Assembly (NCBI GenBank): GCA_004321905.1 | Contig: SCQF01000012.1 | Span: 5,411 to 69,410 of the forward strand | DNA: 64,000 bases | Source of the DNA: Verrucomicrobiota bacterium | GTDB lineage: Bacteria > Verrucomicrobiota > Kiritimatiellia > CAIQIC01 | Direction of reading: 5' to 3' | Shown here: piece after piece, positions 1 to 22,440 of the stretch | How positions within the stretch are numbered: the first letter of the stretch is position 1 | Layout of the letters: each line of letters begins with the position of its first letter | The notes under the pieces: model-generated | The model's input: only the letters and a program-made list of their open reading frames with translations | Told to the model about the DNA's origin: nothing | The model's database searches: none | Program-made: the position numbers and the translations under genes

Positions 1-172
1 GGGCTGTCGAGACACGCCCTTGCCCGCTGATAAAACCAACAATCAGTGGAATGCTCGCCAGATGACAGGGGCTAAGCACGATGCTCAAGATGCCCCATGC
101 CGAGGCAGCCGCCAGCGCGATGAGTGGCACGCCTTCGACGGCATGACTTAAGCTGGAAAAGAGGTGTTCCAT
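1..172 (-). CDS. Cytochrome c-type biogenesis protein CcdA/DsbD transmembrane family (N-terminal part, gene runs off window)
   Basis: The minus-strand translation from the ATG at 170-172 reads MEHLFSSLSHAVEGVPLIALAAASAWGILSIVLSPCHLASIPLIVGFISGQG. This is a hydrophobic segment with the conserved Cys typical of CcdA/DsbD thiol-disulfide transporters. It lies directly downstream of two thioredoxin genes. Confidence 0.5.
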   Translation of the reverse strand, partial: MEHLFSSLSHAVEGVPLIALAAASAWGILSIVLSPCHLASIPLIVGFISGQGRVSTA

Positions 173-173
173 G

Positions 174-572
174 TTACTTTGTTGTGCTGAGGTCTACCCC
201 GAGTTCTTTCCACTTGGCCAAGATGTCATCTTTCCCAAAGAACCCCTCGTGGCGGAACAGTTCCTTGCCGTTTGCCGCATAAAAAATCTGCGTCGGGATC
301 AAGTTGATCTTGTACGGCTTGCCCGCGTCGGGATTTTTCCAAACGTCAATGAACTCCACCCGGAATTTGTTCGCGTAGTTCTTCTTTAGGTCTTCCAGGA
401 TCGGCACCATCATTCGGCATGGGATGCATTTTCCCGCGCCAAGGTCTACGAGTTTCGGCAGTGCTGGCTTGGTGCCGGCAGCGGGGGGCGGGGCGTTTGT
501 TGCGTCCGTCGCTATCGCAGCCAAGAGCCATACGCTTGCCAGCGCCGCAACCAGCCATATATCTTTTTTCAT
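174..572 (-). CDS. Secreted/lipoprotein thioredoxin-fold thiol:disulfide oxidoreductase (TlpA/ResA-like)
   Basis: The ORF MKKDIWLVAALASVWLLAAIATDA... begins with a signal peptide and carries a CIPC (CxxC) motif in a thioredoxin-fold context (KCIPCRMMVPILEDL...IDVWKNPDAGKPYKINLIPTQIFYAANGKELFRHEGF). It is the internal Met of the 174..839 ORF on the track, used as start because the upstream part is a separate gene. Confidence 0.7.
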   Translation of the reverse strand: MKKDIWLVAALASVWLLAAIATDATNAPPPAAGTKPALPKLVDLGAGKCIPCRMMVPILEDLKKNYANKFRVEFIDVWKNPDAGKPYKINLIPTQIFYAANGKELFRHEGFFGKDDILAKWKELGVDLSTTK

Positions 573-604
573 GTTCCTGTTTCCTCGCCGGTTTCTGGCC
601 GGTT

Positions 605-839
605 TCACCTGATGAGCTTTGCGATCTCGCCGGCACTCAAGACCTTGCCGACGCACAACACCGTACCGTCCACCGCCAACGCGGGGGGTTAACATCACGC
701 CGAAACTCTGGATTTGGTTGATTTCGGTGACTTTCGCCAACTCATATTCAATGCCGAGCGCCTTGGCTGCAGTTTCGGCATTTGTGGCGAGCACTTTACA
801 TTTCGCACAGCTCATACCGAGCACTTGGATCTTTTTCAT
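605..839 (-). pseudogene. Small thioredoxin-family protein (redox-active disulfide protein 2 type, CxxC) with an apparent +1 frameshift in a C6/G6 homopolymer
   Basis: The N-terminus MKKIQVLGMSCAKCKVLATNAETAAKALGIEYELAKVTEINQIQSFGVMLTP matches the ~77-aa thioredoxin family. After the G6 run at 683-688 the annotated frame reads PRVGGGRYGVV... Removing one base restores the canonical C-terminus TPALAVDGTVLCVGKVLSAGEIAKLIR, with a stop at 605-607. Confidence 0.55.
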
Positions 840-931: not shown

Positions 932-1261
932 TCATGCCTTTCGTGTGGCTACAGTAGCCAATCGCGATTTCCGCACCGCATCGGATTGCATCACACCTAG
1001 CGTGCAGTCGAGGGCTTGCAAGATGCAGGGACATTCGAGGTGGTGAATGACGCGCATACCCGCGCGGCGTTCAATGACGATACCCGCGGTTTTGAGCTGG
1101 GCCAAATGCCGGCTGATAACGGAAGGGTCCACGCGCGCCAGGAAGCGTAGATCGGACACACAGCGGTCTCCCCGGCTAAGCTCGTCCACCATCATCAGGC
1201 GGGTGGGATTGGCCAAGGCCTTCAGAATTTTGGCTCGCGCCACAGCGTCGTCACGTTTCAT
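932..1261 (-). CDS. ArsR/SmtB-family metalloregulatory transcriptional repressor
   Basis: A winged HTH is present (AKILKALANPTRLMMVDELSRGDRCVSDL...DPSVISRHLAQLKTAGIV). The start is taken at the internal Met at 1259-1261 (MKRDDAVARAKILKAL), because the longer ORF would run through its own promoter/operator. Confidence 0.8.
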   Translation of the reverse strand: MKRDDAVARAKILKALANPTRLMMVDELSRGDRCVSDLRFLARVDPSVISRHLAQLKTAGIVIERRAGMRVIHHLECPCILQALDCTLGVMQSDAVRKSRLATVATRKA

Positions 1262-1268
1262 AAGAAGG

Positions 1269-1297
1269 ACTATATGCAGATGTGTGCATATAGTCAA
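1269..1297 (-). promoter_or_regulatory. Near-consensus sigma70-like promoter (TTGACT-N17-TATAGT) with an embedded 22-bp operator palindrome, tatatgca-N6-tgcatata (1271-1292); the mRNA is nearly leaderless
   Basis: On the minus strand the sequence reads TTTGACT atatgcacacatctgca TATAGT ccttctta ATG. The dyad TATATGCA/TGCATATA lies in the spacer, the classic auto-repression layout for ArsR/SmtB regulators. Confidence 0.5.
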
Positions 1298-9891: not shown

Positions 9892-9942
9892 CTTTGCCAA
9901 GGCTTGGAAAACGGGAAGGCCGATTTTTCCAAACCTTGGAAA
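9892..9942. repeat. Paired palindromic units (tttGccaaggcttggaaaa, 13 bp, ttttccaaaccttggaaaa)
   Basis: Located between the htrA stop (9951) and the downstream lipoprotein start (9880). The second unit ends only 9 bp after the htrA stop, and the first ends 12 bp before the next ATG. Confidence 0.8.
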
Positions 9943-9950
9943 ACGCCTCA

Positions 9951-12029
9951 TCATGGGGCATTTTTCTTGCTCGCGCCGTTCCCGTTGGTCCAATCCGGCT
10001 CCAGTTCGGCAAACAGCGTATGCACGCCACGCTTCAAGAAAAATACGACGCGCCTGGCTTTGGCGTGCGCGGCTTGCTTGAGCCGTTTTTCGGCGGTCGC
10101 CACGTCGCCGGTCGTCGTGCCGTCAATCGCCAGCAAAATGTCGCCACTGGCCAAGCCGGCCAGTTGCGCCCAGCCGCCGGTTTCGACGACGGCGATCTTT
10201 ACGCCTTGGAGGTCCGCCGGAATATCGCGATGAATCCGTTCCAGTTCCGTGAGCTTCTCGATGGTCAGATCGAAAACATCGTCTTTATAGGGTAGATGCT
10301 CCTCGGCGGTGCTCAAATCTTCCTCTAGTTTTAGAGTGAGCGTTTGCGACTGGCCGCCGCGCAAAATTTCGCAGGGCACAGCGCGACCCACGCGGTAGCG
10401 CCGGATCTGCGCGTAGATATCGCTCACGTCTTCGGGCCGCTCGCACTTCACCGGGTCGCCATCGAACTTCAGCAGGATGTCGCCCTTTTGAAAACCGGCG
10501 CGTTCGGCGGAGTGGCTGCGATAGACCAGTGTGACCAACGCGCCGCTGCGGCCCTGCAAGCCCAGTGCTTCGGCCAGTTCCGGGCTGAGCGCCTGCAATT
10601 CGGCGGAGAGTCCCGGCTTGCGCGCCGGTTCGACGTCGGGCCGTTTCTGCTCCTTACCGATTTTCACGACCGTCAAATACTGTCGTTTGCCGTGATCGAA
10701 TTTCACGAGCACCGGCTTGGTACCTTCGATGCCCTTGAGTTGCGCGTCGGTCACGCGGCGTAAATCGGCCACGCTGTTCACCGCGGCCTGGGCCACTTCC
10801 AGAATGACGTCACCTTCGTTGACCGCCGGCTTGGCGTCGCTCACGGCGCTCGCCAAACCCACGGAAACGACCAGCACGCCATTGGTGTTCGGCCGTTGCC
10901 ATTCGATGGCCGCGATCAGCGTCAGGTTACGCGCCACCATGCCCCATTCCTTGAGTTCCACGTCGTTGCTTTGCGCCTTGCCGCGCACGCGGGTCGTCAG
11001 GGTCAGCTTGTGTTCCTTGCCGTCGCGCAACGTCACGAGTTCCACTTGTTTGCCGACCGGCGTGGAAAGGAGCAGCCGGTTGAAAGCCGGTAAATCTTCC
11101 GGGATGCGGGCATCCACCTCCACGCCGTCATATTTTTGCAACACATCGCCCGCCTTGAGTCCCGCCGCCGCCGCGGGCGAATCGGGCAAGACACCGCCGA
11201 CGAGTACGCCACGTTCGATGCCCAGATTTTTGGGCCGCGCCTGTCCTTCGATGCCCAGCCAGCTCCGCTGCACACGGCCTGTCGCGATCAGTTGCTGCGC
11301 CACGTCTTTGGCGATGTTGCTCGGAATCGCGCCGCCCAAACTGCCCAAGCCGATTTCGTTGATGCCGATGATTTCGCCCGCGGGGTTCACCAGCGGTCCG
11401 CCGCTGTTGCCCGGATAAATCACGGCGTCGTGGCCGATCCAACGCACGACTGAACCGATGGCCTCGCCCTCTTCGCGGAAAGCACCCGCGCCGCCGAACA
11501 TGGAAGGTAGCATGAGCTGCGTGTTGCTGATAATACCCTTGGTCACCGACTGCGAGACGCCCGCCGGACAACCCATCGCCAACGCCACGTCGCCCACCCT
11601 CAACTGGTCGGAATCGCCGAATTGCGCCACGTGCAGCGGCGCTTTATTTTTGCGTTTGCTCAAATCAAGTTGCACGATGGCGATGTCCGTCAGCGGATCG
11701 GTCGCCACCAGCCGCGACTCGACTTCTTCGCCGTCGTACATCCGGCAGATCAGCCGCTTGCCGCGCCCGGCCACATGGTGATTGGTGATGATATAGCCAT
11801 CCTCGGAAATGATCGCGCCGCTGCCGGAACCGAGATTTTTTTCCAGCCGTCCGCTACGCGGCGACTCCATCACCACCATGATCCGCACCAGCGACTGGTA
11901 CATCCGGCTCACCGCGCGATCCACTTCCGCCGCGCTGATGGCGGGCGTTTCTGCGTGCGCGGGCAGGCGGGCGAGCAGCGCCGCCGAAAAAACGAGCAGC
12001 CCCACAAAGCGCCGGCGGTTTGGTTGCAT
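9951..12029 (-). CDS. htrA: HtrA/DegP/DegQ-family periplasmic serine endopeptidase with multiple PDZ domains
   Basis: The S1C catalytic triad motifs are intact (TNHHVAG, DIAIVQLD, GNSGGPLVN) and there is a signal peptide. The long C-terminal region is PDZ-like. Confidence 0.9.
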   Translation of the reverse strand: MQPNRRRFVGLLVFSAALLARLPAHAETPAISAAEVDRAVSRMYQSLVRIMVVMESPRSGRLEKNLGSGSGAIISEDGYIITNHHVAGRGKRLICRMYDGEEVESRLVATDPLTDIAIVQLDLSKRKNKAPLHVAQFGDSDQLRVGDVALAMGCPAGVSQSVTKGIISNTQLMLPSMFGGAGAFREEGEAIGSVVRWIGHDAVIYPGNSGGPLVNPAGEIIGINEIGLGSLGGAIPSNIAKDVAQQLIATGRVQRSWLGIEGQARPKNLGIERGVLVGGVLPDSPAAAAGLKAGDVLQKYDGVEVDARIPEDLPAFNRLLLSTPVGKQVELVTLRDGKEHKLTLTTRVRGKAQSNDVELKEWGMVARNLTLIAAIEWQRPNTNGVLVVSVGLASAVSDAKPAVNEGDVILEVAQAAVNSVADLRRVTDAQLKGIEGTKPVLVKFDHGKRQYLTVVKIGKEQKRPDVEPARKPGLSAELQALSPELAEALGLQGRSGALVTLVYRSHSAERAGFQKGDILLKFDGDPVKCERPEDVSDIYAQIRRYRVGRAVPCEILRGGQSQTLTLKLEEDLSTAEEHLPYKDDVFDLTIEKLTELERIHRDIPADLQGVKIAVVETGGWAQLAGLASGDILLAIDGTTTGDVATAEKRLKQAAHAKARRVVFFLKRGVHTLFAELEPDWTNGNGASKKNAP

Positions 12030-21048: not shown

Positions 21049-21390
21049 ATGGCGGTGACGATCATGAGCGTGTTGGCACAGTGGATGTGCGCCGCCGGAG
21101 CTGGGGCGCGATCCGCAGATCGAGGTGCCCGGCAGCGCGCCCGAGGCCTGCATCGCACGCGACAAAATTCTCAAGCTGGTCCCCGACGTGGTGCTGCTCG
21201 ACCATCGAAATGCTGCGCATGGATGGCCTCATATTCCTACGCAAGCTGATGCACTATCATCCCGTACCCGTCATTATTGTCTCTTCGCTCACACCACCGG
21301 GCGGCCAGGTCGCACTGGACGTCATCGCTGCCGGTACCGTGGATGTGGTCTGCAAGCCCAGGCCGCAACTGCCATGGGCCAATAGGGCAG
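21049..21390 (+). pseudogene. Decayed CheB/CheY-like receiver-domain gene remnant (frameshifted, truncated)
   Basis: Two frames together read ...DPQIEVPGSAPEACIARDKILKLVPDVVLLD / IEMLRMDGLIFLRKLMHYHPVPVIIVSSLTPPGGQVALDVIAAGTVDVVCKP. This is the conserved REC domain of protein-glutamate methylesterase CheB, split by a frameshift, with no intact N-terminus or methylesterase domain. Confidence 0.4.
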
Positions 21391-21569
21391 AAATGCTGGC
21401 GAACAAAATCAAGGCCGCCGCGCTGGTGAAATTTAGTCGCAACGCCCCTGCGGTCGCCGGTGCGCCCGCCGAAGCGATCCGACTCGGTGCGGCCTGCGAG
21501 GTCGTGCCGCTTCAAAATATTTGCCGAGCGCCTGATCACGCACGCCTGCAACGGCGCAACATGACGCGG

Positions 21570-21620
21570 GTTTCCAAGGCCTGGAAAACATAACCGTCCC
21601 TTTTTCCCAAGGTTGGAAAC
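21570..21620. repeat. Paired degenerate palindromic units (gtttccaaggcctggaaaa, 12 bp, tttttcccaaggttggaaac)
   Basis: Located at the 3' end of the CheB-like remnant. Confidence 0.7.
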
Positions 21621-21637
21621 GGCATGCGCTATATGTC

Positions 21638-21658
21638 TATATGCACACATCTGCATAT
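21638..21658 (+). promoter_or_regulatory. Second copy (21/22 nt identical, opposite orientation) of the arsR operator/promoter: tatgtcT-atatgcacacatctgca-TATGGT
   Basis: tatatgcacacatctgcatat matches the reverse complement of 1271-1292. Its flanks resemble the -35/-10 of the arsR promoter, and it points toward the small ORF at 21774. Confidence 0.45.
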
Positions 21659-21773
21659 GGTTGGAAGGCATCGTGCCCGCCCGTATCCCCCATGGCCAGA
21701 AATTGCGGTTGCCTGCCGCCGTCGCTCCGTGTAGAGTCCGCGCCCGCAAACGACGCGAGTCAGGAGAATTATC

Positions 21774-21971
21774 ATGGGCGACATGTTACGACGAAATAAG
21801 AATCTACGCCGTCCGCGCAAGAGTGGCACCGACCGCCGCCGCCGCGAACAGACGCACCGCCGCCGCCTTTTGGCGCTGGGCGTGCCAGCCGAGCAGTTGC
21901 GGACGATGGATGCCGTACAACTGCGCGCACTGCTCAAAGAGAAGATCAAAGGACACCAGCAGGCCGCTTGA
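21774..21971 (+). CDS. Hypothetical small basic protein (65 aa)
   Basis: The N-terminus is Arg-rich (RRNKNLRRPRKSGTDRRRREQTHRRR), followed by a predicted helix. There is no recognisable family. It sits about 115 bp downstream of the duplicated ArsR-type operator. Confidence 0.3.
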   Translation: MGDMLRRNKNLRRPRKSGTDRRRREQTHRRRLLALGVPAEQLRTMDAVQLRALLKEKIKGHQQAA

Positions 21972-22086: not shown

Positions 22087-22440
22087 ATGAAGACGATCAT
22101 TCGCTCGGTATGTGTGGTGCTGGCAGTGGCGGCCTTGAGCGGTTGCGGCGTGCCCAAGGAAGAGCACCAGAAGCTCCAAGAAAAATGTGCCGGGCTTGAG
22201 CAACAACTCGGTCGCGCGCAGCAGGACATCCAGGCGCTCCAGAACGCATTGCAGCAGAAGGAAGCCGAAGCGGCGGGTCGCGTTCAGGAAGCCGATCAAC
22301 GTGTACAAGCGATGATGCTGGTGCTGAAGAAAAAGCAGCAGGAATTGGACGCGAAGGGCGGCAAGGCGACGAGCGCCAAAGTCGGCACGACGACCAAGAA
22401 GCCTGCGGCCAAGAGCACGAAGAAACCGGCTGGCCACTAA
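22087..22440 (+). CDS. Lipoprotein with coiled-coil and Lys-rich tail, hypothetical
   Basis: A lipobox is present (VLAVAALSGC) and the coiled coil is Q/E-rich (LQEKCAGLEQQLGRAQQDIQALQNALQQKEAEA). Confidence 0.5.
   Translation: MKTIIRSVCVVLAVAALSGCGVPKEEHQKLQEKCAGLEQQLGRAQQDIQALQNALQQKEAEAAGRVQEADQRVQAMMLVLKKKQQELDAKGGKATSAKVGTTTKKPAAKSTKKPAGH

Follow-up and report, generated by a model that had tools for sequence, protein, structure and literature searches.

What does it mean that two nearly identical copies of an apparent ArsR-type operator lie 20 kb apart in the same bacterial DNA? The window (the whole 64-kb stretch analysed here; measured at 57.8% G+C, and not the 62% first stated) carries one copy, site 1, directly upstream of arsR, and another, site 2, upstream of a small basic ORF at 21774. 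The preliminary description took this duplication to imply a small regulon that includes the 21774 ORF. Our analysis leads to a different reading, which we hold with moderate confidence: site 1 would be an autoregulatory operator-promoter of arsR, and site 2 an orphan copy that has lost its promoter and exerts little or no control over the 65-aa gene beside it.

The arsR gene (932-1261, minus strand) encodes a 109-aa protein of the ArsR/SmtB family. It matches Pfam PF01022 (HTH_5; 2e-13, 50.4 bits, cut-off 22) and NCBIfam NF033788 (67.3 bits, cut-off 55), has the winged helix-turn-helix of HTH_5/ArsR type by which membership in the family is recognised, and counts NmtR, SmtB, SrnR and NolR among its relatives in the PDB. 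No second ArsR-like ORF that might own site 2 is present in the window, where 932-1261 is the only one. The protein carries the motifs C34-V-S and C77-P-C79...C86, both kept in all close orthologs, instead of the C-V-C-D-L motif of R773. The characterised site types are those of R773 (C32-V-C34...C37), AfArsR (C-terminal), CgArsR (N-terminal), alpha3N and alpha5; to our knowledge, the C34 / C77-P-C79 / C86 pattern matches none of the characterised As(III)/metal site types. These cysteines may form an uncharacterised ligand site.

An operon is headed by arsR and continues with Thioredoxin_3, a periplasmic thioredoxin and CcdA/DsbD_TM, then GcvH, two DGC genes and OsmC. The two thioredoxins appear as one fused ORF (174-839, minus strand) owing to a frameshift in a C6 run (688-683), and in orthologs they are two separate genes of 77 aa and 137-141 aa. 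The same fusion is present in an independent Logan assembly of the same run; it may be a true frameshift or an error of reads or assembly common to both. Only the 5′ part of the DsbD_TM/CcdA gene lies in the window (1-172, minus strand), the rest being beyond its edge; gcvH, DGC, DGC and OsmC were read from locus L001. Orthologous operons in metagenomes carry arsP, LMWP arsC, an ArsM-like methyltransferase gene, acr3 (SBF), arsD and arsA, and it is through these relatives that the family is associated with arsenic and metal resistance genes. We therefore class the ArsR encoded at 932-1261 as arsenic-type.

A pattern scan of the 64-kb window located the dyad TATATGCA-N6-TGCATATA at 1271-1292 with 0 mismatches. 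With its flanks, site 1 reads ACTATATGCAGA-TG-TGTGCATATAGT, and the arms at 1269-1280 and 1283-1294 are complementary at 11/12 positions. It is thus better described as a 12-2-12 imperfect inverted repeat (1269-1294, without strand) containing the 22-bp dyad than as an 8-6-8 repeat. The promoter scan recovered the near-consensus arsR promoter in which the preliminary description had placed the dyad, with a -35 TTGACT (1292-1297, minus strand) and a -10 TATAGT (1269-1274, minus strand) separated by 17 nt and scoring 10/12 over the two hexamers. The repeat fills the promoter spacer from the edge of the -35 to the -10, which overlaps the outer end of the operator; an operator repeat overlapping the promoter of the gene to be regulated is found at site 1 only.

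Downstream of the -10, 7 nt (1262-1268, CCTTCTT) without a Shine-Dalgarno sequence precede the arsR ATG (1261-1259). The dyad had been placed 8 nt before this ATG, and the close spacing holds, although the figure does not, as the 22-bp dyad ends 9 nt and the -10 ends 7 nt before it. A -10 some 6-8 nt from the start codon and a missing Shine-Dalgarno sequence are the marks of a leaderless gene, and the arsR transcript is predicted to be leaderless, as had been proposed. An additional half-site, ATATGCACAC, lies at 1323-1332 on the plus strand, about 30 nt beyond the arsR -35. The related string ATATGCAC has four occurrences in the window, and sites 1 and 2 together with 1323-1332 account for three. 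Comparison of the arsR upstream regions showed that the position of this extra half-site is not kept in orthologs.

Comparison supports site 1. Seven other arsR-linked sequence types retain the box, a spacer of 17 nt and a gap of 6-7 nt to the ATG while the flanks diverge. The arsR genes of L003-L006, L019, L021 and L023, whose ArsR proteins are 84-89% identical (a group of five ArsR variants, loci L003, L019, L021 and L023), all have an unchanged 20-nt core, ATATGCACACATCTGCATAT, in front of them, although the sequence varies among these loci both beyond the -35 and in the 6-7 nt leading up to the ATG. The core changes by 1 nt in L050 (ArsR 81% identical) and by 2 nt in L007 (80%). In L009 (79%), both half-sites are altered symmetrically, giving ATATGA-N8-TCATAT, and the recognition helix reads NQSAISRHL instead of DPSVISRHL; this is the only ArsR compared with a different helix. 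Box and recognition helix change together, which fits a DNA operator and lends indirect support to the predicted binding of the box by its cognate repressor.

All eight arsR-linked copies have TTGACT or TTGACA, a 17-nt spacer, a TATA-type -10 (A2/T6-compatible or near-consensus across the 8 copies) and 6-7 nt to the ATG, and since this last distance is kept in 8/8, the predicted leaderless layout is conserved as well. In locus L018, the same 20-mer is flipped and sits inside TTGACA-18-TATAAT, 6 nt before the ATG of an ArsR that is 33% identical, keeps SVISRHL and adjoins an arsM-like gene. Taken as a prediction from these comparisons, site 1 is a well-supported ArsR operator. An ArsR dimer, or a pair of dimers, bound to the 12-2-12 repeat would exclude RNA polymerase; ligand binding would release the protein from site 1, and release would yield a leaderless arsR-thioredoxin-thioredoxin-CcdA-GcvH-DGC-DGC-OsmC transcript.

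Beyond the close orthologs, a degenerate scan of GTDB genomes with ATRTGCACACATNNGCATAT returned 50 loci, where simple arithmetic assuming uniform composition predicts about 35 by chance. Sites adjoining ArsR genes were found in nine Streptomyces-type loci (eight Streptomyces and one actinomycete MAG), a spirochaete, a Gemmatimonadales MAG and a Desulfobacterales MAG, and in most of them the start codon lies within the box. The Streptomyces-type box, GTTGTC-ATATGCACACATTAGCATAT-GACAAC, adjoins a 105-aa ArsR-family gene whose start codon is inside the box (L034, L038, L039, L042, L045, L053, L055, L057 and L063). A related box, ATATGCACACATTCGCATAT, is kept in six Rhodococcus/Prescottella loci (L028, L054, L056, L072, L076 and L077), and a quick test detected no adjacent ArsR gene at these six. 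The box may represent a very widespread ArsR-subfamily operator. Separately, the more distant orthologs share a block of about 40 nt, AGTGAACGCCG..CC..CTGCAAG.C.GAAAA, between arsR and a divergent small ORF. It lies 40-85 nt upstream of the arsR -35 (L007 at 9915-9955, L009, L019, L021 and L023) and is absent from the window and from L003.

Site 2 is the only other occurrence of the dyad in the window: with up to 2 mismatches allowed, TATATGCA-N6-TGCATATA has exactly two matches in the 64 kb, the second at 21638-21659, inverted relative to site 1 and differing in its last base (21/22). The pattern was matched 0.00 times in 100 dinucleotide-preserving shuffles, which rules out a chance origin of the pair, as had been argued before. 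The repeat finder (repeat I9) extends the inverted copy to 32 nt, with 1269-1300 matching 21630-21661 at 91% (29/32), and the longest exact run common to the two sites is the 22-nt CTATATGCACACATCTGCATAT. The inverted copy described earlier is therefore present and somewhat longer than first given. Because the asymmetric centre is identical, we regard sites 1 and 2 as related by descent.

The 32-nt copy (21630-21661, plus strand) also has the promoter-like flanks ascribed to it and faces the 21774 ORF: a -35-like ATGTCT (21633-21638) is followed after 17 nt by a -10-like TATGGT (21656-21661), both on the plus strand. All three differences from site 1 fall within these hexamers (TTGACT to ATGTCT, TATAGT to TATGGT), which score 3/6 and 4/6, and the consensus promoter scan called no promoter-like site at site 2. 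Its 12-2-12 arms match at 9/12 positions.

The surroundings of site 2 appear rearranged. Directly upstream lies a REP-like D1 element (21569-21629, without strand), two palindromic units of the TTTCCAAGG/CCTGGAAAA type, where the repeat finder identified families D1 and D2. Before it, and overlapping its edge, is a remnant of a cheB-like receiver domain (21081-21593, plus strand), whose frame shifts by +1 near 21200 and which lacks a methylesterase domain; its Response_reg match of 17.9 bits is below the cut-off and covers only profile positions 49-100. In a three-frame reading, an extra C near 21200 splits PDVVLLD from IEMLRMDGL, and the N-terminus is unreadable. The remnant is probably a pseudogene marking a rearranged region beside site 2. 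A suggested cheB paralog at about 59.1 kb (repeat D15) proved to be a PpiC/SurA-like gene with chance-level similarity. Searches with tblastn for an arsR remnant beside site 2, or beside the orphan box of locus L022 discussed below, gave nothing above noise.

A direct repeat, GGTTGGAAACGGCAT / GGTTGGAA-GGCAT, brackets site 2 (13/15, p ~0.003 by shuffling), and its left copy belongs to a D1 arm, which is a common motif in the window. We considered and rejected these flanks as a target-site duplication: they are significant for site 2 only, confounded by the D1 arm and absent at the other orphan boxes. A clean insertion was likewise abandoned, as the segment from D1 to the promoter is unalignable in the closest relative, L024, and an empty site is undefinable there. 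The REP-like palindromic family to which such units belong, TTTTCCAAGGCTTGGAAAA, has at least 15 intergenic units in the window, often paired 32 nt apart, with unit starts at 2414, 7470, 9892, 12100, 17815, 21569, 22471, 23174, 29634, 32150, 35707, 57968, 60480 and 63433. It also occurs in metagenome loci L003, L007, L010, L022 and L024, and was not found in the loci of genome LJ_bin-4696 with up to 3 mismatches.

The gene next to site 2 (21774-21971, plus strand) encodes a 65-aa basic protein and has a Shine-Dalgarno sequence, AGGAG, at 21762-21766. The protein has 20 homologs at 52-100% identity and belongs to no Pfam or NCBIfam family; we take the 21774 ORF to be a real gene on these comparative grounds. 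It is followed by a gene for a 117-aa coiled-coil lipoprotein-like protein (22087-22440, plus strand), and all ortholog contigs long enough to show it have a gene of 107-123 aa next after the 65-aa one. The genes upstream of the pair vary by locus. The pair lies near HAD-tsf-rpsB in the window and in L010. In L017 (1772-4998), a 65-aa/114-aa pair is followed directly by an ArsR-family gene and RND efflux genes (OEP, CzcB, ACR_tran), the only such link seen and probably a coincidence.

The pair has a promoter of its own. We aligned the window with the upstream regions of orthologs whose proteins are 85-92% identical (six sequence types on 12 contigs), and conservation sets in no more than about 10 nt ahead of the -35 of the 65-aa gene. 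Across these 7 loci, TTGCCT-N17-T(A/G)TA(A/G/C)AGT is invariant and is followed by CCGCGCCCGC, and a conserved CCGCGCCCGC(A/G)A block marks the predicted 5′ end of the 65-aa/~115-aa gene pair. In the window, this native promoter reads TTGCCT-N17-TAGAGT (21709-21737, plus strand), then the conserved CCGCGCCCGCAAAC. The dyad of site 2 ends at 21659, about 50 nt before the conserved -35 at 21709, and the two do not overlap; a protein bound at site 2 would therefore not occlude the conserved promoter, and the site is not placed to interfere with it. In L010-L017 and L024-L027, the regions in front of the orthologs hold neither the dyad nor any ATATG-N10-CATAT, even when 1 mismatch is allowed, and nothing in the alignment corresponds to site 2.

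These observations bear most directly on the two-promoter regulon, in which ArsR would repress a weak promoter, ATGTCT-17-TATGGT, at site 2, and induction would add a transcript with a leader of about 105 nt to the expression of the 65-aa/117-aa pair. Several features are consistent with it and count against our own reading. Site 2 is oriented like the 65-aa gene, keeps the 17-nt spacing, the A2 and T6 of the -10 and 21/22 positions of the dyad, and no terminator-like site separates it from the 21774 ORF on the plus strand. Distal targets of ArsR proteins are moreover documented (PMC7965956, PMC5658604; AzuR-nmtA in PMC8790569). Yet the box is absent upstream of 6/6 ortholog sequence types, including those at 91-92% protein identity, it does not overlap the separate conserved promoter of the 65-aa gene, and its hexamers are weakened. 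In LJ_bin-4696, the orphan boxes occupy gaps between convergent genes or positions right after a stop codon, with no promoter to target, and profile searches found no detectable arsenic or redox link of the 65-aa/117-aa pair. We consequently think the regulon proposed in the preliminary description unlikely, although a weak arsenic-responsive upstream promoter at site 2 is still conceivable.

The reading we prefer instead, an autoregulatory site 1 and an orphaned site 2, holds that site 2 would be a copy by descent of a 32-bp cassette that lost its promoter consensus in a decayed or tolerant intergenic stretch. With its dyad almost intact at 21/22, site 2 may still bind ArsR, but its influence on the 65-aa gene is most likely slight or absent. 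On this reading, it is an operator that was dispersed or left behind, and not evidence of a designed regulon.

Similar orphans occur elsewhere. A scan of JGI metagenomes for the exact 20-mer gave six loci, namely three arsR-linked sites, the L018 paralog, L020 and L022. The L020 match lies in low-complexity CA/TG-rich DNA and was discarded as chance. The L022 orphan, TTGACG-...-TATAGC, follows genes for malic enzyme and a VOC protein and has no arsR downstream. The exact 20-mer had 0 matches in the GTDB species representatives, and searches of a plasmid collection and of full-text literature for the half-site motif returned nothing relevant. The degenerate GTDB scan recovered four boxes on four contigs of the uncultured Lentisphaerae bacterium LJ_bin-4696 (ArsR 81% identical): L050 is arsR-linked, and L033, L035 and L071 are orphans. 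L033 lies between the convergent recN and an uncharacterised gene, L071 between convergent genes for a TonB-dependent receptor and an MFS protein, and L035 40 nt beyond the end of a gene for a secreted protein, counted from its stop codon. Promoter-impaired copies of the box of about 30 nt are thus found at unrelated, mostly 3′-end intergenic positions in this genome. A search for further copies, as suggested earlier, hence yields none beyond the two in the 64-kb window but finds orphans in LJ_bin-4696 and L022. The thought that the motif might belong to a repeated element at many loci stands as to several orphan loci and falls as to many, with 2 and 4 copies.

The flanks of the LJ_bin-4696 orphans are closer to site 2 than to their own arsR promoter at L050. 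L071 matches site 2 at 30/33 positions (TATATGTC[A/T]ATATGCACACAT[A/C]TGCATATGG), compared with only 4/9 to L050 over the nine bases left of the core, and in its flank (TATATGTCT...GG) site 2 resembles L071 more than the arsR promoter of either genome. Among the five orphans (site 2, L022, L033, L035 and L071), the -35 is lost in 4/5, and in L022 the -10 lacks its final T. The orphans were found by exact-core searches, and their intact core is an ascertainment effect that carries no evidence on selection. The unexplained recurrence of boxes of the site 2 type in a second genome was unexpected, and the likeness of the site 2 and L071 flanks is a hint that such boxes are retained or propagated as a class, rather than being random relics.

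On such an account, promoter-less ArsR sites would form a maintained class, or a tiny dispersing cassette, and act as repressor-titrating decoys or as roadblocks at gene ends that a ligand can release. LJ_bin-4696 has one arsR-linked and three orphan boxes, and the orphans of both genomes share TATGT in place of TTGAC and a G after CATAT, which no arsR-linked copy has. Three of four orphans lie 45-135 nt downstream of the stop of a co-oriented ORF, the fourth is found 40 nt beyond the stop codon of an opposite-strand gene, and site 2 is bracketed by its 13/15 direct repeat. Against this, copies are very few, and the three LJ_bin-4696 orphans may be copies of one another, which would leave only two independent lineages. 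There is no flanking repeat at the other orphans, the repeat at site 2 overlaps the common D1 arm, the exact-core search biases the sample, and no transposase or IS lies nearby. We find this alternative rather improbable, and its sharper form, in which boxes of the type TATATGT[C/A][T/A]-ATATGCACACAT[C/A]TGCATAT-G would constitute a maintained class of roadblocks, decoys or a spreading minimal cassette in this PVC clade, placed near the 3′ ends of genes or between convergent ones, is a speculative and doubtful extension of it. Lastly, the palindromes could act in RNA instead of binding a protein, as hairpins or intrinsic terminators serving, for example, fmt (upstream of site 1) and the genes that precede the orphans; we hold this to be highly improbable. 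In its favour, the terminator scan flags the minus strand of site 1, where a stem of 11 bp is followed by CTTCTTATGA, the RNA fold of site 1 reaches -14.7 kcal/mol (z = -6.2) and the orphans lie near the 3′ ends of genes. We disfavour this reading because the T-rich tail of site 1 is not kept in orthologs (for example, TATAGTcgccgccATG in L003) and the orphan hairpins fold no better than shuffles (z = -1.4, -1.2, -0.5) and have no U tract. A DNA operator agrees with the invariant placement between -35 and -10 and with the way the box varies along with the recognition helix, and no Rfam family matches near either site.

Site 1 provides a clean, comparatively defined operator/promoter for an uncharacterised ArsR subfamily of uncultured Verrucomicrobia-related bacteria, and is possibly useful for biosensor design and for annotation of ars operons in this clade. 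Site 2 carries a warning: finding an operator again, even in an exact copy, is not enough to establish a regulon. Here the orthologous loci reveal a separate promoter for the neighbouring gene and no box. If orphan boxes work as decoys or roadblocks, they would be a modest but real addition to the wiring of ArsR circuits.

Set beside known systems, site 1 is familiar. A 12-2-12 imperfect inverted repeat is the operator architecture of ArsR/SmtB regulators, as in smtA/SmtB, ziaA/ZiaR and nmtA/AzuR, and site 1 shares with these a winged-helix repressor gene and a 12-2-12 repeat overlapping the adjacent core promoter (PMC8790569). A metalloid-resistance operon context, here in relatives, is shared as well. 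The arsR gene described here differs in its predicted leaderless start, in a site 1 half-site of ACTATATGCA-A as against the TGAACA type of the alpha3N/alpha5 metal sensors, and in its C34 / C77-P-C79 / C86 pattern in place of the R773 CVC motif.

Site 2 has several partial parallels. ArsR regulators with targets beyond the ars operon are known from the arsenic stimulon of Agrobacterium tumefaciens 5A (PMC7965956) and from Thermus thermophilus, where TtSmtB has dispersed ars genes (PMC5658604); in these, as here, a second regulator box lies far from the regulator gene. Distal control was shown there by expression or binding, whereas site 2 lies outside the conserved promoter of its neighbour, a gene without an arsenic link, and has no counterpart at orthologous loci. 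Like REP and REPIN elements, the orphan boxes are short imperfect intergenic palindromes, often near gene 3′ ends or between convergent genes. Unlike those elements, which have many copies per genome, they number 2 in 64 kb and 4 in the LJ_bin-4696 assembly, are identical to the operator of a regulator and have no RAYT in sight; the abundant REP-like family of the window (TTTTCCAAGGCTTGGAAAA) differs in sequence from the ArsR box. Another parallel is promoter reuse by putative mobile promoters, as described by Nijveen, Matus-Garcia and van Passel (PMC3575422). Site 2 departs from it in having lost its hexamers and kept only the operator, over a length of about 32 nt. It resembles it in being a promoter-sized near-copy upstream of non-homologous genes with no obvious carrier, the sequences upstream of arsR and of the 65-aa gene being identical at 29/32 positions, with a further copy at L022 and others in a genome of the same clade.
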